This document shows, piece after piece, positions 2,945 to 48,355 of a stretch of 64,000 bases of DNA. The notes under the pieces are model-generated. The model searched no databases and was not told where the DNA came from. It saw only the letters and a list, made by a program, of their open reading frames with translations. Source of the stretch: a phage; the sequence record PZ386966.1, one strand, 5' to 3'. The translations under genes and the position numbers were made by a program. Within the stretch, counting starts at the first letter, position 1. Each line of letters begins with the position of its first letter.

Positions 2945-3274
2945 TTAATCTGCCAACCTTAAATTGAAATTAACACCAAATTTTTCACATACTTCCAACA
3001 TATACTCAAGGGAGACGTTACCAGTGAGGTGGATTATGTTGGATACACGAGCCTGAGAGATACCACAAATTTTAGCAACTTGCTCTTGAGAAAGACCTCT
3101 GGATTTAATCTCTCTCTTAAAACGATGTGCAACGAAGTCTCTCATTTCGTCTACATCCATTGGACAAATATAACTCTCCATTTCAGCCTCTCTATCAGCC
3201 TCCCAATCATCTTGTGGGGCATAAGGGTCAAAGACCTCATTCATCTTTCTTCTTCCGTTTGCGTGAAGTGTCAA
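2945..3274 (-). CDS. helix-turn-helix (XRE-like) DNA-binding protein
   Basis: C-terminal LSQEQVAKICGISQARVSNI HTH-like segment. Confidence 0.5.
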   Translation of the reverse strand: MTLHANGRRKMNEVFDPYAPQDDWEADREAEMESYICPMDVDEMRDFVAHRFKREIKSRGLSQEQVAKICGISQARVSNIIHLTGNVSLEYMLEVCEKFGVNFNLRLAD

Positions 3275-39359: not shown

Positions 39360-39561
39360 AAAGACACGGAAAATTATCCGGTCAGCAGTATTCATTGGAA
39401 GAAATGAAGTGATTCCTTTTACAGCAAATGATGTGATAGTCTACAGGAAAAAATTAGCATTCAGTTATTGCTTACGTGGCTTCATCTCCCAACCGTTGGA
39501 AGACTTTAAAAGCCGTTGTGGTAAAGGTATCATCATTCAAGAGGCAATTATTCATGGCTGA
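39334..39561 (+). CDS. hypothetical protein
   Basis: 75 aa ORF. Confidence 0.35.
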   Translation: MKVILARDKKTRKIIRSAVFIGRNEVIPFTANDVIVYRKKLAFSYCLRGFISQPLEDFKSRCGKGIIIQEAIIHG

Positions 39562-39754
39562 TTTCTGCAAGAAGTGTGCAATAGAACATTTTGGTGTTGA
39601 TACAGGGGACTTGAAAGGTCTCTTCACCAAAGAAGAGTTTGAAGCTGGTTCAGCTATGCCAGTTATCTGTGAAGGTTGTGGTGCAGGTTATGTAGACCAT
39701 GAAGGTAACCGTGTAAAACCATCCGAAGATATGCAACGTTGGGAGCATTATTAG
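39554..39754 (+). CDS. small Cys-rich protein
   Basis: ORF 39476-39754 trimmed to MADFCKKC...; CxxC...CEGC motifs. Confidence 0.35.
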   Translation: MADFCKKCAIEHFGVDTGDLKGLFTKEEFEAGSAMPVICEGCGAGYVDHEGNRVKPSEDMQRWEHY

Positions 39755-39755
39755 T

Positions 39756-40541
39756 ATGGGTATTGTAAAAATCATCAATGGTGATATCTTTGCAGCATTT
39801 GATAAAGGTAAGTTTGACGTCATCGGTCACGGTTGCAACTGTATGAACCTAATGGGTGCAGGTATCGCTGATAAGATTTCTAAACTTTACCCAAAAGCAT
39901 ATGAGACCGATACAGAAGTTTATCTATATGCAGGCGGTATAGGTCACAAACCCTGTGAAAATTTACTGGGTAATTTCTCCGTAGCACGTTTAAAACAAGG
40001 CCGTATAGCTAACCTTTACACTCAGCTTAAGACTGGTAAAGATGCTCGATATAGTGCTTTAGAGTCATCTTTGAAACAGCTTAACAGATACTGTGAAGTC
40101 AATCAGTTGAAGAAAGTCGGGTTACCTATGATTGGTGCAGGTATCGGTGGGCTAGACCCCCAAGCCGTCACAGTTATCATCAATCAGGTGATGAAGAGTG
40201 TAGATGTGTATCTGTATGTCTATGAAGGAGAGATGTACCACAAGTTACACTCAGGTTGGGAGAACTACTGTGAACCAGAATACTTTGCAGGTGTAGCAGT
40301 GTTCACGGATAATGCAGTTACCCTCTTCAGACGAAGAAAAGGTAAGATACATCAAAGTAACCCTCCGGTTGAAAAGATGTCTCTAAGTAACGCTCTAGTT
40401 ACCCACCTGTCGAAGAGCAATCACAGAATTGCAGTAACATTTGGCAGTGATGCAGATACTTACATCTATGCAAGAACTGATGAGGATATCGAGACAGTTT
40501 TCTCTTCGCCGGAAGTTACCTTCTTAGACGCAAAGAACTAA
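39756..40541 (+). CDS. macro-domain protein (ADP-ribose binding/processing)
   Basis: IINGDIFAAFDKGKFDVIGHGCNCMNLMGAGIADKI and VGLPMIGAGIGGLDP match the two glycine-rich macro-domain motifs. Confidence 0.6.
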   Translation: MGIVKIINGDIFAAFDKGKFDVIGHGCNCMNLMGAGIADKISKLYPKAYETDTEVYLYAGGIGHKPCENLLGNFSVARLKQGRIANLYTQLKTGKDARYSALESSLKQLNRYCEVNQLKKVGLPMIGAGIGGLDPQAVTVIINQVMKSVDVYLYVYEGEMYHKLHSGWENYCEPEYFAGVAVFTDNAVTLFRRRKGKIHQSNPPVEKMSLSNALVTHLSKSNHRIAVTFGSDADTYIYARTDEDIETVFSSPEVTFLDAKN

Positions 40542-40619
40542 GAAACTCTGTAGAATATTCACAAGAGACTAAGCCTTTCTTATCTGGTAAATTTTTCAGG
40601 TAAGGAGGGCTTTTTTATT

Positions 40620-40800
40620 TCAGGATTGTGCAGGTAGAGTTCTGTAGAGAAATCTGTAGAGAAAATTTTGAACTCCAAAGAGAAAATTCATTTTCAAACT
40701 GTGCAGGTAATCTCCAAAGAGCTTTTTCATTTTCAAAACGTGCAGACCCCACTCAGGTCGGGCAAGAAAAATCATTTGAGAATTGTGCAGGTAGGTTTTT
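40620..40800. repeat. direct repeats CTCCAAAGAG..TTCATTTTCAAA..TGTGCAGG (two ~36-bp units, extra TGTGCAGGTA copies)
   Basis: Units at 40672-40707 and 40713-40746; TGTGCAGGTA at 40627, 40700, 40787. Confidence 0.55.
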
Positions 40801-40968
40801 ATAGACAGCCAGACCAACCCCTCTCCCCCTCTTACTCCCCCTCTCCCAAAGAGTCAAGAGAAAAATTTGTAGCGGATTGAAAAATAATTCTTGATTATTG
40901 TTCTGTTTTGTGGTAGCCGTGTGCGCCCGTTTCATTACAGTTTTTTGCAAAAATATTTTTAAAATTTT

Positions 40969-40997
40969 CTTGACTCTCTGGATTTTGTTGCCTAGTA
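40969..40997 (+). promoter_or_regulatory. sigma70-like promoter for small-gene array
   Basis: TTGACT-17 bp-TAGTAT upstream of first small gene. Confidence 0.5.
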
Positions 40998-41050
40998 TTT
41001 GCAGCAGACAGGGTGACAAGCCCACTAACCTAAACTGGAGAATCTAAGAA

Positions 41051-41434
41051 ATGGCATACCGTGCAACTAAGTTCATCAACAAAGATAACTTCCGCAATGT
41101 ACTGGAGAAGTCACTTGATGAAAATTTCAAAGGTAATACTATTGTTGTTCACGCATTTAATTTTAAATATGACGTAAATGGTAACAGGATTAACCATTAC
41201 ACGGCAACCATGTTAGACGGTACTCTGTCAAGTGAAAAAGCAATTTTACATGCACTTGCAGGACGTGGTAAAAACCTGATAAGATGCGATAAGAGACGTT
41301 ATCAAGGTGGTGCATATGGTTACGATGATGCTATCTATCATCTTGAGAATATGGGCTATCTAGTAGAAAAAGCGGGAGTACCCCAAATTATTGGTAGTGA
41401 TGGCTATGTAACAATTTTCAAAATTAACCGATAA
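41051..41434 (+). CDS. hypothetical protein (small-gene array 1)
   Basis: Preceded by conserved TAAACTGGAGA..ATG initiation region. Confidence 0.5.
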   Translation: MAYRATKFINKDNFRNVLEKSLDENFKGNTIVVHAFNFKYDVNGNRINHYTATMLDGTLSSEKAILHALAGRGKNLIRCDKRRYQGGAYGYDDAIYHLENMGYLVEKAGVPQIIGSDGYVTIFKINR

Positions 41435-41519
41435 AGTACTTTACAAGGGGCTTAGTAGTTGATACCTTAAGCCCCAGATAAAGAGCTTTACCACTAAATC
41501 CTAAATTGGAGATTCAAAA
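41431..41519 (+). repeat. intergenic element A copy 1 (TAAAGTACTTTA palindrome + GGGGCTTA/TAAGCCCC hairpin + conserved RBS)
   Basis: Near-identical to copy at 43111-43199. Confidence 0.7.
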
Positions 41520-41810
41520 ATGGCTATTATCAAAAACGTTGTAGTTCCTGCAAAAACTCGTGATGACGCTCGCATCATGGCGAAAAAGTTAGGCGGGAAA
41601 GTGGTTGACAACGGAAAACAATCTGCTGTAAGGTGGGGCGTAAAGGCTGATAAGCAGTTGAAGTTAAAAAATTCACCAATAAACCTTTTTACATGTGTAA
41701 ACACTATCGGGAAGACAAATGTATACACGAAAAAGGCATATATTAGACGCGTAGCCTTAACATCCCCCATTCGTACAATGAGAGGTTATGCAAAACTGAA
41801 AATTAACTGA
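41520..41810 (+). CDS. hypothetical protein (array 2)
   Basis: ORF after element A. Confidence 0.5.
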   Translation: MAIIKNVVVPAKTRDDARIMAKKLGGKVVDNGKQSAVRWGVKADKQLKLKNSPINLFTCVNTIGKTNVYTKKAYIRRVALTSPIRTMRGYAKLKIN

Positions 41811-41899
41811 TAAAGTACTTTACAGGGGGCTTAAAAGTTGGTATCTTAAGCCCCAGATAAAGAGCTTTACCACTCAATCCTTAAACTAGGAGAGTCAAA
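41811..41899 (+). repeat. intergenic element A copy 2
   Basis: Same palindrome and stem, different loop. Confidence 0.65.
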
Positions 41900-42112
41900 A
41901 TGAACATTAATCAAAAACTGAAAGCCGCCTCACAAGTCCTATTCACAGATGATGACTATTTCAATAAAGACCTTACAGGTTTGAAATCTCTCAAAGAGAT
42001 TAAAGAGCGCATGAAAATTTATGGAAAACCTCGGTTAGTTGGCGTATTCTCTAACTGTTATGTTTATCAGCTTAATGGTCATTACAATTTTACAATTACT
42101 ATTTTATCCTAA
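41900..42112 (+). CDS. hypothetical protein (array 3)
   Basis: ORF after element A. Confidence 0.45.
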   Translation: MNINQKLKAASQVLFTDDDYFNKDLTGLKSLKEIKERMKIYGKPRLVGVFSNCYVYQLNGHYNFTITILS

Positions 42113-42128
42113 ACTGGAGATTCAAAAA

Positions 42129-42425
42129 ATGAAATTATCAAATAAAGTTCGTGAAAATCTGAGCAAGTTACTCAACAAAATTGATTTCATTGAAACATCA
42201 AGAAATAGTCATGATGTTATGGAATGGTTACACGGCAAAATAAAAGGTCGTCGTGTAGTAATTTGCTTATGGAATAGTTGCAGGGAGTATAAAAAACCTG
42301 TATTACAAATCAATGTTTATGATGATACTTTTAAAAGTCCTGTAAAGTCTAAAAGCGATTTATTAGAATCCTATGAGATATCTGTAAATGGTAAAGTGTC
42401 ACGTAAAGAGGAAACACCATGCTGA
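42129..42425 (+). CDS. hypothetical protein (array 4)
   Basis: ORF 42039-42425 trimmed to Met following conserved CTAAACTGGAGATTCAAAAAATG. Confidence 0.45.
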   Translation: MKLSNKVRENLSKLLNKIDFIETSRNSHDVMEWLHGKIKGRRVVICLWNSCREYKKPVLQINVYDDTFKSPVKSKSDLLESYEISVNGKVSRKEETPC

Positions 42426-42751
42426 TGACTGGTATCACTGCAATCATTGCCATTTTCGCACTCTATAAGGCATATAAAGCCTATAATCTAGCAAATAAAG
42501 CAATCACGCAGCAGGTTAGCAATAGCCTTGTAGAGAGCTTTCTAGAGCGCCTCAGTGATGAGCAAATAAAACGGCTAGAGATGAGCTTCAGATATAAAGC
42601 GAAAACCTATCAGATAAGTGACATCTTCAAAGATGATTTTCAGTTAGTCGATGATTATAATTCACTGATAAATGCTTTAAATATCAGTGACTTAAAAGAC
42701 TACTACGCTGTAATTGTTCAAGAATTGAGCAAACGAAAACAAAGTGTTTGA
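42419..42751 (+). CDS. hypothetical membrane protein (array 5)
   Basis: N-terminal hydrophobic segment MLMTGITAIIAIFALY. Confidence 0.45.
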   Translation: MLMTGITAIIAIFALYKAYKAYNLANKAITQQVSNSLVESFLERLSDEQIKRLEMSFRYKAKTYQISDIFKDDFQLVDDYNSLINALNISDLKDYYAVIVQELSKRKQSV

Positions 42752-42841
42752 CACTGGTTTTTAGATAGATTAAATTACACATCAACGGGGAGGGAATGAC
42801 CTTCCCCACTAAGTAAAGTCCTTAAACTAGGAGATTCTAAA
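42748..42841 (+). promoter_or_regulatory. element B copy 1: promoter (TTGACA-17-TAAATT) + GGGGAGG..CCTTCCCC hairpin + RBS
   Basis: TTGACA 42748-53, TAAATT 42771-76, hairpin 42787-42807. Confidence 0.6.
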
Positions 42842-43114
42842 ATGTATACTACTAACAACGGTCGTACTTTAAATGTCACTCTACGTCACTATGTAGATGG
42901 TGTAATGTGCTTTGAGGATTTACAAGCTGAGCAACACATCTTAGATTGGCAACTTGCAGGACTCCAAAAAACTACTACTGGATACGGTAAAAAGATTCCA
43001 ACTAGCTGGAAAGTATACTACGAAGGACGTTTGCGCAGAATTTATCAAGATGTGTATAGTAATAGTGCATCAAGTTACATCATGGTAAAAGGTAAAAAAC
43101 TGCATTTAGTATAA
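42842..43114 (+). CDS. hypothetical protein (array 6)
   Basis: ORF after element B. Confidence 0.5.
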   Translation: MYTTNNGRTLNVTLRHYVDGVMCFEDLQAEQHILDWQLAGLQKTTTGYGKKIPTSWKVYYEGRLRRIYQDVYSNSASSYIMVKGKKLHLV

Positions 43115-43199
43115 AGTACTTTACAAGGGGCTTAGTAGTTGATACCTTAAGCCCCAGATAAAGAGCTTTACCACTAAATCCTAAATTGGAGATTCAAAA
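43111..43199 (+). repeat. intergenic element A copy 3
   Basis: Identical by eye to copy 1. Confidence 0.7.
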
Positions 43200-43604
43200 A
43201 TGGCTATTAATGACCGTGAGTTATCAATACTGAAAGCACGTTTGACCGTTAACCGGATTAATGTTATTACATCATCAGCACCTGATGAGACATTGCACAA
43301 CATTATTGGAAAGATTCAAAGTGTTATCTTAGACGTTGAAAATGTAAAAAACTCATTGGCTGACGTTGCAGCAGGTATCACGCTAGACGGCGCACAATAT
43401 GAAATGGCTGACATGTTAGGCAAATCAAAGGTAATGAATAAAGAATTAGACTTGAAAATGTTCAGATTTGCTGTTAAAGTGTGGCTATCCGTCGAGTATG
43501 ACGCCAATTTTGCAATCGCTGATTTCTTTGCCACTTGGTTACAACGTAACTTAACAAGCTATGATTTTCGTGATATCTGTGATGCAATTTATGCAGAACT
43601 CTAA
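43200..43604 (+). CDS. hypothetical protein (array 7)
   Basis: 134 aa ORF. Confidence 0.5.
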   Translation: MAINDRELSILKARLTVNRINVITSSAPDETLHNIIGKIQSVILDVENVKNSLADVAAGITLDGAQYEMADMLGKSKVMNKELDLKMFRFAVKVWLSVEYDANFAIADFFATWLQRNLTSYDFRDICDAIYAEL

Positions 43605-43610
43605 AAACTG

Positions 43611-43704
43611 TTGACACTGGTTTTTAGATAGATTAAATTACACATCAACGGGGAGGGAATGAACTTCCCCACTAAACAAAGTCCTTAAACTAGGAGACTC
43701 AAAA
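43611..43704 (+). promoter_or_regulatory. element B copy 2
   Basis: TTGACA 43611-16, TAAATT 43634-39, hairpin 43650-43670. Confidence 0.6.
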
Positions 43705-43908
43705 ATGGCTATTATTAACGGCTTAAACATCGAAACAACACACATCAAAGACATTAAAGTTGGTGATGTAGTCCTTTCCCACGGCGTAGAGAAAACTGTT
43801 ACTGCAAAGGATATCAAAGAGGATTCTTTCATGGGTAGGACTCTCTTCGGTGATTCTTATTGCTTAGGGTATCTTGCAGTTTTAAAAGTTGTCAAAAATA
43901 ACAAATAA
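43705..43908 (+). CDS. hypothetical protein (array 8)
   Basis: 67 aa ORF. Confidence 0.45.
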   Translation: MAIINGLNIETTHIKDIKVGDVVLSHGVEKTVTAKDIKEDSFMGRTLFGDSYCLGYLAVLKVVKNNK

Positions 43909-43994
43909 AGTACTTTACAAGGGGCTTATAGTTAGATAAAGTAAGCCCCAGATAAAGAGCTTTACCACTAAATCCTTAAACTAGGAGAGTCAAA
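43906..43994 (+). repeat. intergenic element A copy 4
   Basis: Same palindrome; stem GGGGCTTA/TAAGCCCC with different loop. Confidence 0.65.
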
Positions 43995-44537
43995 ATGAAA
44001 TGCTTTCACGGCACTACTCAAGAAAATTTTATCAATCTGATTAATAACGGCGATAAGCCATCAGGTGCATGGAATTGTTCGGATATGGACGGCAATTTTT
44101 ACGTGTATCCAGAAAATAAAATCTATGGCGACGATGAGGAAGAGATAACATCCGAAGGTATTCAACAAGCATTAGGAAATGCCACTATTACCGCAGCTTT
44201 TCAGATGAAGACTCAAAATATTGTTATCTTAGAACTTGACATTCCAGAGGATGAGTTAAATGATGATTACTCTTGTGATAATATGTCAAGCGTGGCAAGT
44301 TTTACAGAGTACTTTGATTTAAATTGGATTAAAAAGGTTTACATCACTGAGTTTAATGCTATGTTTTCGCCTTTTTGTCTTCCTTCACTGGATAACCCCA
44401 ATTTAAACTATCTTGATGAGTCTCTGGAGCTTCTTGCTAAAAGTGTTCAACAGTCCGACAGTATTCAGGTTTTTTGTGATATCATGGATACACTGACAGG
44501 AAACATCACAGAAAGAGATTTGAAGAGTTTTTTCTAA
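43995..44537 (+). CDS. hypothetical protein (array 9)
   Basis: 180 aa ORF, hairpin terminator after it. Confidence 0.5.
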   Translation: MKCFHGTTQENFINLINNGDKPSGAWNCSDMDGNFYVYPENKIYGDDEEEITSEGIQQALGNATITAAFQMKTQNIVILELDIPEDELNDDYSCDNMSSVASFTEYFDLNWIKKVYITEFNAMFSPFCLPSLDNPNLNYLDESLELLAKSVQQSDSIQVFCDIMDTLTGNITERDLKSFF

Positions 44538-44603
44538 AAACCTATGCAATCACCTTATAAACACTGATTAGCCCCTTGTAGGGGCTTTTAGAGGGCTTAA
44601 ATC

Positions 44604-44837
44604 ATGCTTACAACTGTTTACCTCATCCTTTCCATCTGTAATGGTCATTCATGTGATTTTAAAGGGCTTGAGGAGTTTACAGGGAGTAAAGAAAATGCTA
44701 TTCAAGTTTGCCAGATAGCAAGACAAGACTATCCCGCCAGTGATGATATTCAATGCTACTTTAAGACAGAAGATGAAGACGGCGTCTATTTTGACAGTGT
44801 CGATGGTCAATATGAAATTATCATTGAAAAAGACTAG
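44604..44837 (+). CDS. hypothetical protein (array 10)
   Basis: 77 aa ORF. Confidence 0.4.
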   Translation: MLTTVYLILSICNGHSCDFKGLEEFTGSKENAIQVCQIARQDYPASDDIQCYFKTEDEDGVYFDSVDGQYEIIIEKD

Positions 44838-44927
44838 ACAAGCCTGATAAAAATCTGTAAATTGTCAATCAACGGGGAGGGAATGACCTTCCCCACTAAA
44901 TAAAGTCCTAAACTGGAGAATCTAAAA
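44835..44927 (+). promoter_or_regulatory. element B copy 3 (variant -35 TAGACA)
   Basis: TAGACA-17-TAAATT, hairpin 44873-44893. Confidence 0.5.
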
Positions 44928-45269
44928 ATGGCTTATGTAACCGTAATTACCGATAAAGCTGGCGCATCTTGGTCAACTCAGGTCAGTGATAAGATGTCAC
45001 CTATGCAGTGCCTAAAATACTTTGAACAGTGGAATAAAGGCGAGGACACAAGCCCCTTTCAAGTGATGCAGATTATCCATGTAGACAACGAAGGGAATAA
45101 AACGACGCTGAATAGTGAGTACTATGCAAGCCGTTTTGAAACGAGAAGTAAAACAATGAAACTTTTACGTGAATCCGGTTATACCCATATCGCCGCGTTA
45201 ATCTGGGATGACCTGCTAAAAAGTCAGCGTATCAGCTATGTAAAACCTGAAAAAATATTCATCAGTTAA
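44928..45269 (+). CDS. hypothetical protein (array 11)
   Basis: 113 aa ORF. Confidence 0.5.
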   Translation: MAYVTVITDKAGASWSTQVSDKMSPMQCLKYFEQWNKGEDTSPFQVMQIIHVDNEGNKTTLNSEYYASRFETRSKTMKLLRESGYTHIAALIWDDLLKSQRISYVKPEKIFIS

Positions 45270-45300
45270 TCAATGACTTACAAAAAACTTTTAAAAAGAT

Positions 45301-45325
45301 GTTGACAATCCCTCTTGACATTGGT
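45301..45325 (+). promoter_or_regulatory. double-TTGACA promoter-like motif GTTGACAATCCCTCTTGACATTGGT
   Basis: Same architecture as motifs at 10209 and 56082. Confidence 0.4.
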
Positions 45326-45398
45326 AACTTTGTTCGAGGGGGTTTATCTAAAAGGGATTAACTTAAAAGATTCTTTATAGATAGACTTAAAAAATTGC

Positions 45399-45491
45399 TT
45401 GCAATCAGATATCAAAACAAGTAAATTACTCATCAACGGGGAGGCAATAACCTCCCTACTAAGTAAAGTCCTTAAACTAGGAGATTCTAAA
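45399..45491 (+). promoter_or_regulatory. element B copy 4 (compensated stem GGGAGG..CCTCCC)
   Basis: TAAATT box 45423-28, hairpin, conserved RBS. Confidence 0.5.
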
Positions 45492-46022
45492 ATGAACAAG
45501 TTCAAAGCTATCAACTATATTCGTTCAAATAATGTAATGTCTAAGCCTGTTAAAGATACCTATGAATTTCGTTGCAATGGTGAGCACTTTGCTACTATCA
45601 CTAAATCAGAAAACGGGGCTTATTATATCCATCGTCGTAATGTTTCTACGGTTGTAGTTTCTAACTTTATGCAAGCTGTAGCGGAACTCCTCCCGCTCTT
45701 CTTAGAAAAGTATACCGTACAGTGTGAAAGTGTTCGTGAATGCACTAAAACAGTGTTAAACGGTTATCGTATGGCTTACGAGCGCTCTTTAAAGAATCTC
45801 AACAAGTACTACAAAGCACCGGAAGGTACTACCTCGACAGCCTACGGGGTAGGGGGCTTCAATGTTAGCCTTTACGAAGTGGAAGAAATCGAGCTTTATG
45901 ACCATCGCCCAAATGGTTACGCTAAAACACTGGGGGAAGGGTTAATGATGAATATCAAGAACTTAGAAAAAACTTTAAGAGAAATTGAAAAAGACATTGA
46001 CGAGACAATCACGAATCTGTAA
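45492..46022 (+). CDS. hypothetical protein (array 12)
   Basis: ORF 45399-46022 trimmed to MNKFKAINY after conserved RBS. Confidence 0.5.
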   Translation: MNKFKAINYIRSNNVMSKPVKDTYEFRCNGEHFATITKSENGAYYIHRRNVSTVVVSNFMQAVAELLPLFLEKYTVQCESVRECTKTVLNGYRMAYERSLKNLNKYYKAPEGTTSTAYGVGGFNVSLYEVEEIELYDHRPNGYAKTLGEGLMMNIKNLEKTLREIEKDIDETITNL

Positions 46023-46726: not shown

Positions 46727-46900
46727 CGTCTATGTAATAGCCTCTATACAATCCTTTCCCTTTCCTTTCCAGAGTCTATCCCACTAATTTGATAGAATCT
46801 ATCTCGTACCTTAAAAGCAATAACTCTATAGTCTACTCTATAATCTCTTATCAAATCAACTTAAATATAAGCCCATAACCCGAAAGGGAAGGGCAACCGT

Positions 46901-46927
46901 TTAATTGGTATTGTTACCAATCCCTAA
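46901..46927. repeat. 27-bp exact repeat TTAATTGGTATTGTTACCAATCCCTAA (copy 1), contains TTGGTA..TACCAA palindrome
   Basis: Second copy at 47596-47622. Confidence 0.7.
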
Positions 46928-47595
46928 ACGCTCTATAAAGCTCTATAACAGCCTTATCAACCTAACTTAAGGGATTGCATTAACTCACCTTAAAAAGCTC
47001 TTTACAGGGCTTTATAGAGGCTTAAAAGAATCTTATAAGGTTATAAGCTTTATTATCTCGTTAGCTATCTTGTGAACTACTAAAAAGGGGCTTGTTAGTA
47101 TCTTAAAAGTATGTTATAGGGGCTATAAAGTTACTCCAAAGTTACGTAAATGTTAGCCCCCTTAACATTTTCTTAACAATTTCTTAACAAACCCTACATA
47201 GTTATGCTTGTTAGCCCCTTGTTAAATCTCTGTTACAACCATGTAAAAGCCTTGTAAGAACCTTTGACATAGCCTTTAAAGCCTCTGTAAAGCCCTATAA
47301 AGAGCTATCTGTACAGTTGGGCTGTAGTTACTAGGGAGAGACTTAAAAGGGGCTATGCAGAGCTATACAGAGCTTTTAAGAGGTATGTTTAAAGAATCAC
47401 TAAGAGGGAAAGGGAACGATAAGAAAAGAAAGTTGTGTTTGTAAACAACCACTGTGACCATGTTAACAGCTTGTTAAAAAGATTAAACACTTGTTAGGAA
47501 CTTGTTAATTATCTTAACAAAATAACTCTTTAAAATTAACTTGTTAGCTCTTGTTAATCATCTGTTAAGACTCTGTAAAGACTATGTATCAACTG

Positions 47596-47622
47596 TTAAT
47601 TGGTATTGTTACCAATCCCTAA
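47596..47622. repeat. 27-bp exact repeat (copy 2)
   Basis: Identical to 46901-46927. Confidence 0.7.
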
Positions 47623-48355
47623 GAAACTGTTACGCTCTTGTTAGTTCTGTTAAGGAACTGTTAAGACCTTTGAAGGGTTGTTAAGAAGATGTGAGAACTG
47701 TTAAGAGATTGTTAAGGATATTTTAAAATTTTGCAAAGGGGGTGTTAAGGAGCTGTTAAGGGCTACCAAGCAGATATACATCTTCTACAGATATTTTTCA
47801 GTTCCTTCAAAGACCCTGAAAAATGACTTGACAGTCTTATTTTATAAAAATTTTAAAATTCTGAATAATTACCTATACAGTCTTTTAAAAATACAGGCAT
47901 AAACAGGCTTATAAGATACCTTGTTAGTACCGTGTTAGACCTTGTGAGATAAGGTCTGTGAAGATATTCCTGTTAAGTTTGTTAAAACAGTCTATATAGA
48001 GGTTTAGTAGTACCTAGTGAACACCTATAGAGAGTATCATAGCTGACATAGAGATTAAGAGGTGTATAGGGGCTTCTAAGAGGCTATAGAGAGATGGTTA
48101 AGGTGATTGTATAGGTTGTTAAGAAGGCTTGTTAGAAGAGTGTTTAGAAGGGCTATACAGAGGGGCTATTAAGACCACTAGATAGATACTAAGATACTAT
48201 ATAGTACTATATAACTATATAGAGAGTAAGATTAAGAAGGTTGTTAAGAAGGGTAGATATTTTATTCACATATGATGGTGACCCAGAGGTTGGGACAACC
48301 GATGAAATTTTATAAAAATTAAAAAGCCCCCAATTAAGGAGGCTCTTAAGATATT

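Follow-up and report, generated by a model that had tools for sequence, protein, structure and literature searches.

A conserved, non-coding array of four direct-repeat units ahead of the early small-gene array in Felixounavirus and related Ounavirinae phages

The repeat locus and its neighbourhood

We examined a stretch of 64,000 nucleotides (hereafter the window; record PZ386966.1) that belongs to a Felixounavirus genome (Felix O1-like, subfamily Ounavirinae). Positions 40400–41200 of the window matched 223 phage records at 80–96% identity, nearly all of them Felixounavirus. The repeats lie within an intergenic region of ~510 bp (40542–41050), at the junction of the replication and nucleotide-metabolism operon and the early small-gene array. 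The gene upstream (39756–40541) encodes a protein of 261 aa with a macro domain, annotated as 'phosphatase', and is the final gene of a long plus-strand block that holds replication and nucleotide-metabolism genes and rIIA/B. PDB sequence matches to the macro-domain protein were limited to residues ~5–168, no family was recognisable in its C-terminal part of ~95 residues by Pfam and PDB sequence searches, and a single-sequence AlphaFold model was unusable (pLDDT 32). The wV8 record has a terminator annotated at the place equivalent to the one that closes this block in the window; in Mooglevirus its left arm carries a compensatory change, and its right arm is invariant.

The genes downstream of the repeats gave no Pfam match. 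In the small-gene array (41000–46000, also in L001), a sigma-70 promoter and a 5' stem-loop cassette stand ahead of most genes, and in wV8 most small genes are preceded by annotated repeat cassettes (DR_1-9), which we read as promoters. The small-gene array is hyperplastic and its gene content varies among close relatives (SapYZU01, for example, has two additional small genes); with its promoter/stem-loop cassettes it resembles the PeSL shuffling cassettes of T4. The following features were identified between the macro-domain gene and the first early promoter:

40571..40612, plus strand: rho-independent terminator, 17-pair stem and T-run, which closes the long plus-strand operon including the macro-domain gene
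40607..40636, plus strand: unit 0, GGGCTTTTTTATTTCAGGATTGTGCAGGTA; overlaps the terminator T-run; mean column conservation 0.95 (23 relatives)
40641..40664, plus strand: 12-bp tandem TCTGTAGAGAAA, two copies; extra ~34 bp between units 0 and 1; absent in Kolesnikvirus
40673..40709, plus strand: unit 1, CTCCAAAGAGAAAATTCATTTTCAAACTGTGCAGGTA; conservation 0.96–0.98
40712..40747, plus strand: unit 2, CTCCAAAGAGCTTTTTCATTTTCAAAACGTGCAGAC; 3' box degenerate
40760..40793, plus strand: unit 3, GGGCAAGAAAAATCATTTGAGAATTGTGCAGGTA; diverged copy in the window
40796..40848, no strand: variable 53-bp cassette; allele a in the window, allele b in 11 of 27 relatives
40846..40862, minus strand: inverted copy of the early promoter −35 segment (TTCTCTTGACTCTTTGG), 88% complementary to 40965–40981
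40849..40905, no strand: highly conserved non-coding block, AAAGAGTCAAGAGAAAAATTTGTAGCGGATTGAAAAATAATTCTTGATT; conservation 0.93; includes a half-unit without GTGCA box
40949..40998, plus strand: AT-rich UP-like element and first strong sigma-70 early promoter (TTGACT-17-TAGTAT), 185 bp from the last GTGCA box

The units were extracted with GTGCA as the anchor and compared in an alignment of 27 distinct relatives. We found four head-to-tail units of ~40 bp, whose GTGCA cores start at 40628, 40701, 40740 and 40785 and which are spaced 73/39/45 bp apart in the window. The common core was W5-TCATTT-N7-GTGCA(G/T)(G/A), with GGT usually next after GTGCA; it covers ~26 bp (an A5 or T5 tract, TCATTT, seven A/T-rich bases and GTGCAGGT) and has no dyad symmetry. 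The 3' arm and T-run of the terminator double as the left part of unit 0, and unit 3 is represented in Mooglevirus by a canonical CTCCAAAGGG unit.

The composite pattern TYATTT-N7-GTGCAG had five matches in the window, four of them within the array, against 0.06 expected by chance. This count excludes chance and establishes as real the direct repeats that an earlier, sequence-only reading of the window had pointed out. That reading had listed two units and three boxes, which was correct as far as it went but incomplete, as there are four units in total, and its coordinates for the two units were off by one (actual positions 40673–40706 and 40712–40745). The three exact TGTGCAGGTA boxes were recovered at 40627, 40700 and 40784 on the plus strand, with no other exact copy in the 64-kb window; the invariant core, however, is TCATTT-N7-GTGCA with the preceding A5/T5 tract and not TGTGCAGGTA alone. 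Similarly, both CTCCAAAGAG...GTGCAG units were present, but CTCCAAAGAG itself is lineage-specific. The promoter that had been placed at 40969 was found as TTGACT-17-TAGTAT at 40970–40998. Tandem Repeats Finder reported for the region only the 12-bp double repeat at 40641–40664, as divergence among the ~40-bp units puts them beyond its reach.

The 12-bp tandem repeat fits a degenerate box of CTNTWNAG type. Boxes of this type (CTTGTTAAG, CTGTAAAG and CTATAAAG, 10–11 bp apart) are packed into the non-coding stretch 46800–48300, which holds the ~600-bp terminal repeat, and are also enriched at 10.2–10.5 kb, between the divergent DNA-polymerase and replication-gene blocks and among the most AT-rich stretches of the window. 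We also found a perfect 27-nt direct repeat, TTAATTGGTATTGTTACCAATCCCTAA, with an internal inverted repeat, at 46901–46927 and 47596–47622 (695 bp apart); one copy lies to the left of the inferred terminal repeat and the other inside it.

Conservation of the units and variation of the adjoining cassette

The array was detected in all four Ounavirinae genera (Felixounavirus, Suspvirus, Mooglevirus and Kolesnikvirus), in each case past the terminator of the macro gene and ahead of the first early promoter. Lack of conservation in relatives had been named in advance as the result that would speak against the sequence-only reading, and we found the opposite. The spacing of the units in each genus was:

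Felixounavirus: 73 / 39 / 45 bp
Suspvirus: 73 / 39 / 45 bp
Mooglevirus: 75–77 / 39–41 / 45 bp
Kolesnikvirus (Erwinia phages): 37 / 37 / 39 bp; box GTGCATAG

Unit number, order and position were retained from Escherichia/Salmonella phages to Erwinia phages; Si3-type phages have three units instead of four, and the array was also present in a more distant metagenomic relative of ~81 kb. It is single-copy, occurring once in the 64-kb window and once in the complete 88.5-kb genome of wV8, where the box and the composite unit were both confined to the equivalent locus. The 30-nt cores shared 83–97% identity with Suspvirus and Mooglevirus relatives (73% for one Mooglevirus unit), whereas the adjacent macro gene reached only 68–72% DNA identity in those same relatives. 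Across 23 sequences, column conservation averaged 0.94–0.98 for the cores and fell to 0.74 for the spacer that separates units 2 and 3 and to 0.66 for the cassette that follows unit 3. Purifying selection on the units themselves has thus left a clear footprint, and the array is among the best-conserved non-coding stretches in the Ounavirinae.

A two-unit pattern searched against IMG/VR and JGI metagenomes recovered only Ounavirinae-type contigs, plus unrelated contigs with coding tandem repeats, and an 18-nt single-unit pattern gave only scattered chance matches in other phage groups. No analogous array was found downstream of a distant homologue of the macro gene (40% identity). The array motif had no match in 5,426 E. 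coli genomes, which argues against a site borrowed from the host, and we rejected that possibility.

In L162 and L174, both of the Si3 type, the macro gene, the terminator and the first units were replaced by another allele (equivalent window 39546–40727). The replacement has only 41% amino-acid identity between flanks that are ~95% identical. This mosaic exchange is sharply bounded, and one of its breakpoints falls within the repeat array. Two further records, GU169904.1 (Staphylococcus phage SA1, 147 kb) and one 'Campylobacter' phage, contain this Felix O1-like region at ~92% identity, which suggests that they are mixed or contaminated assemblies.

The cassette that follows unit 3 was found as two alleles. 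Allele a, the one in the window, includes a perfect homopyrimidine mirror repeat, CCCTCTCCCCCTC-TTA-CTCCCCCTCTCCC (40819–40847), 25 bases past unit 3 and inside the most C-rich 40-nt stretch of the window. Read on the minus strand, the repeat is the sole canonical G-quadruplex motif in the window, and wV8 has its sole G-quadruplex motif at the equivalent position. Allele b has exactly the same length, an unrelated sequence and is G-rich on the plus strand (GGTAGGTGGGTGCAGGTGGGG); a cassette of the b type was also found in the distant metagenomic lineage. Since both alleles are G- or C-rich, a G/C-skewed, structure-prone tract is kept beside the array, but its strand is not.

The inverted copy of the early −35 segment was present in all genera and is a candidate leftward promoter (P-left), whose −10 element would lie in the cassette. 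With allele a the −10 is TAAGAG, a poor match without the critical final T, and the promoter scan makes no call in the window; with allele b the combination TTGACT-17-TGgTAGCCT is plausible. Kolesnikvirus has a conserved, strong leftward TTGAC(G/C)-18-TATACT at the equivalent place, back-to-back with the early promoter, which agrees with 10 of 12 consensus positions and in which the hexamers are kept and the spacer has diverged. Counted from the last box, the early −35 is 185–186 bp away in Felixounavirus with either cassette allele (one exception, 176 bp); the interval is 179–181 bp in Suspvirus as well as Mooglevirus and reaches 210 bp in Kolesnikvirus.

Coding, RNA, promoter and terminus readings

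Existing records have either no annotation at the array or small ORFs. In particular, wV8 has an annotated CDS of 165 nt from box 0 to box 3 (gp13; EU877232.1, 7726–7890), an ORF that starts at the GTG of box 0 and ends at a TAG in box 3, and in the first Felix O1 record four 'unknown' CDSs overlie the repeats (AF320576.1, 7987–8174). These annotations, together with several assemblies that stop in the array region, would be what favours a small protein-coding gene or a packaging/terminal-repeat site, and we regard the chance of either as negligible. In Mooglevirus and Kolesnikvirus the ORF equivalent to gp13 is cut to 3–28 aa. Frames on the minus strand are interrupted from genus to genus and change between close relatives because of 2-nt indels, and indels in the array are not multiples of three. 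Substitutions in the array were distributed 17/17/17 by codon phase, against 33/16/131 in the neighbouring macro gene, and no 3-base periodicity was detected. Based on the broken frames and the missing codon periodicity we rejected coding on either strand, and the hypothetical CDSs in both records are almost certainly spurious.

As regards the ends of the genome, some IMG/VR contigs and the Andreotti record end at 40815–40838, and for this reason we had suspected a physical genome end at the array. This was rejected, as the terminal repeat annotated in Pr103Blw (581 bp) maps to ~47156–47760 of the window, ~6.5 kb downstream of the array. Packaging and terminal-repeat sites stand at genome ends or are duplicated, and the Pr103Blw repeat contains no array units. 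In UAB_Phi87 a terminal repeat of 608 bp was experimentally determined (PMC4837284). The assembly ends at 40815–40838 fall where conserved sequence gives way to strain-variable sequence and where the C-rich tract lies; these two features account for the contig breaks. Among these assemblies, the IMG/VR contigs L005 and L007 end within 100 bp of the mirror repeat, L007 with Nextera adaptor read-through; MN850610 (Andreotti) starts at the mirror-repeat region with a snap-back inverted repeat; and L017 is joined near the mirror repeat to non-phage, GC-rich sequence that looks bacterial.

A structured RNA was rejected on three grounds: the fold z-scores over the array were −0.79 on the plus strand and +2.02 on the minus strand relative to shuffled sequence, the consensus fold of nine sequences from four genera reached −3.6 kcal/mol with no useful covariation, and Rfam gave no credible match (a single one far below the family threshold, 24 vs 211 bits, E 0.11). 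The units were also rejected as sigma-70 promoters, with no match to the promoter pattern on either strand in three genera. Finally, a scan for DnaA-type boxes found none in 40.5–41.1 kb and no cluster in the window. The Kolesnikvirus boxes TGTGCATAG agree by eye with 8 of 9 positions of the relaxed reverse consensus TGTGNAWAA, which we treated as coincidence; the boxes of the E. coli/Salmonella phages, TGTGCAGGT, agree with only 6 of 9.

Candidate functions and comparison with known systems

The exclusion of the main alternatives, taken with the conservation of the units, makes a DNA-level protein-binding array the best reading of this locus, and we consider it probable. Each unit would be a site for a sequence-specific DNA-binding protein, bound as monomers or as head-to-tail oligomers. 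As no such sequence occurs in the host genome, this putative protein is probably encoded by the phage; Pfam searches of the neighbouring genes returned the macro domain or nothing, and we recognised no initiator or other binding protein among them. The C-terminal extension of the macro-domain protein was considered as the binder and set aside, as its PDB sequence matches are confined to the macro domain. The sequence-only reading had offered regulator binding sites or origin iterons, and with coding, structured RNA, terminal repeat and chance excluded and the array conserved, that proposal is supported in part. Several iteron features, however, are absent or atypical, and the boxes lie 185–345 bp upstream of the promoter, too far for a classical operator.

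Within this reading, we favour a nucleoprotein assembly site of iteron type, as the leading candidate though not a probable one; the specific function that ranks first for it is a replication origin or initiation zone. We put forward more tentatively that the array is specifically an origin-type element, and favour this over a regulator or insulator of the early promoter. A protein on the repeats, acting together with the structure-prone tract and with transcription started at the adjacent promoters, might open the neighbouring AT-rich DNA. The uniqueness of the array in the genome and the direct repeats, as in iterons, support an origin, and so does a degree of conservation that is unusual for an otherwise hyperplastic region. 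An initiation zone would also fit the location here of the only G4/mirror-repeat tract of the genome, with a G-rich tract on the other strand in the alternative cassette, and the divergent promoter elements with an AT-rich spacer that adjoin the array.

Other observations weigh against an origin. A different cassette can take the place of the G4 tract, and Si3-type phages do without one unit. Units follow one another at 37–45 bp (units 0 and 1 at 73–77 bp) without helical phasing, no periodicity of AA/TT dinucleotides was detected in the array, GC skew has no inflection there, and DnaA boxes form no cluster. The local AT-rich stretch ranks only in the top 0.3–4% of the window; AT content is 71–78% at 40876–40990 (top 0.3–2%), where the sequence doubles as promoter UP elements; the most AT-rich, skew-switching site of the window lies at 10.3 kb, beside replication genes, and is the better origin candidate by composition. 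The replication genes of this phage (Pol A, primase-helicase) resemble those of T7, and T7 needs no iteron-binding initiator. Finally, a promoter-linked role would account for the fixed distance from the last unit to the promoter no less well than an origin would.

Such a role, in which a protein on the four units would control the early promoter (40970) and/or P-left, or shield them from upstream read-through, strikes us as rather unlikely. It could work by looping, or as a roadblock just past the terminator, and it would agree with an array that starts in the terminator T-run, is directly downstream of the candidate leftward promoter and ends at a constant 185–186 bp from the −35 in Felixounavirus, whichever of the two unrelated, equally long cassettes is present. 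The sites are nevertheless 185–345 bp from the promoter and do not overlap promoter-like sequence, the units lack dyad symmetry, and the only Cro/C1-type HTH protein found is encoded far off (2945–3274, minus strand). The remaining early promoters of the small-gene array (about ten, by our estimate) have no boxes of this kind, since the motif occurs nowhere else in the genome. We give a lower probability to a function at the RNA level, in which P-left would produce an unstructured leftward non-coding RNA with four copies of ACCUGCAC-N7-AAAUGA that serves as a sponge or decoy for an RNA-binding protein or nuclease. The strong conserved leftward promoter of Kolesnikvirus, the promoter-like sequence of allele b and the inverted −35 segment in every genus speak for it, as does a minus-strand RNA less structured than shuffled sequence (z = +2.0), as for a single-stranded binding platform. 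Against this, the −10 of the window allele, with its final T missing, is not called by the promoter scan, no terminator was found for a leftward transcript, no known RNA family or motif matches, and conservation, which is strand-neutral, cannot tell an RNA function from a DNA function.

An array without any function of its own, formed by decayed tandem duplications of terminator-proximal sequence and acting as a homologous 'linker' at a mosaic junction, appears improbable to a similar degree. Unit 0 is indeed the 3' half of the terminator, mosaic breakpoints fall at unit edges (the Si3-type replacement, the cassette alleles and the ACCCCGCTC/AGAAAAATC variants), and the small genes downstream are hyperplastic. 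This is hard to reconcile with cores that are more conserved than the neighbouring coding gene and far more than the spacers, and with unit number, order and position kept from Escherichia/Salmonella to Erwinia phages, as neutral DNA would not survive such divergence. By analogy with T5, the array could also be an injection-stop boundary, the inner edge of a first-entering 'pre-early' segment of ~7 kb made of the terminal repeat and host-takeover small genes. It would then pause transfer or demarcate the segment, with the structure-prone G/C tract as part of the boundary and without DnaA boxes; we give this only a slim chance. The array does lie directly upstream of the promoters of terminal small genes with strong host-type promoters, and ~7.0 kb from the right physical end deduced from the terminal repeat of Pr103Blw, which is 7.9% of the genome, as for the T5 injection-stop signal (iss), an agreement that may be coincidence. 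It has no DnaA boxes, however, and is outside any long terminal repeat. In T5 the pre-early genes point toward the end, so the two layouts would be mirror images, and we know of no report of two-step transfer for a contractile-tailed Felix O1-like phage.

We compared the proposed binding array with known systems; it would work most like an iteron array. We assign it to none of the kinds compared (iterons, R-loop origins, T5 iss and PeSL), since it fails at least one defining feature of each. Origin iterons (lambda ori ITN1-4 and those bound by the Rep proteins of P1, F, pSC101 and R6K) likewise consist of three to four direct repeats unique in the replicon, with A/T tracts in each repeat, in a conserved non-coding region adjoined by AT-rich DNA and active promoters. 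At least three direct repeats unique in the replicon, with no need for dyad symmetry, define an iteron array, and the four units are found at one locus of wV8. Iterons, however, are repeats of 17–22 bp with a helically phased spacing of ~22 bp, against a core of ~26 bp and a spacing of 37–45 bp here; they have a cognate initiator gene, for which no counterpart is recognisable, and known iterons share no sequence similarity with the array. In addition, T7-like replication genes, as this phage appears to have, are usually paired with transcription-primed origins that lack iterons.

R-loop origins (ColE1 RNA II, the T7 primary origin, T4 oriF/oriG and mitochondrial CSB II) resemble the locus in that a promoter is followed by a G/C-skewed tract (G-quadruplex or stable hybrid) next to AT-rich DNA, and the leftward RNA of allele a and of Kolesnikvirus would be G-rich over the tract. 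In allele b the opposite strand is G-rich, the leftward promoter is weak in the window, and R-loop origins do not have a four-unit repeat array. The T5 iss is also a conserved untranslated repeat region beside terminal small genes with host-type promoters, but it extends over ~1.2 kb, is dense with paired DnaA boxes and inverted repeats and is itself part of a terminal repeat of 10 kb. The present array consists of four simple direct repeats and lacks DnaA boxes, and the terminal repeat, of ~600 bp, is 6.5 kb distant. T4-type PeSL cassettes and wV8 DR_1-9 are, like the array, repeated non-coding modules in a hyperplastic early region with mosaic junctions at their edges; they comprise a promoter and a 5' stem-loop and are scattered before many genes, whereas the array units contain neither and occupy a single locus. 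Finally, the sites of operator arrays abut the promoter and recur at co-regulated promoters, whereas these units are 185–345 bp upstream of the −35 and the motif is absent elsewhere.

The Felix O1 genome paper stated that the replication origin and the temporal control were unknown (PMC3185647), and our literature search found no paper on the Ounavirinae origin, on an Ounavirinae transcription map or on this repeat. On comparative evidence, we regard the array as a real non-coding element, deeply conserved and not described before, of a general kind that is already known. Felix O1-like phages are a classic tool of Salmonella typing and common candidates for biocontrol and therapy. If the array were the origin or a master control site, it would be a target for engineering (origin-based interference plasmids, safe insertion sites) and would offer a route to the binding protein and to a corrected genome annotation. 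If instead the array marked a transfer boundary, two-step DNA entry would extend past T5-like phages, to a contractile-tailed phage with a terminal repeat of ~600 bp.
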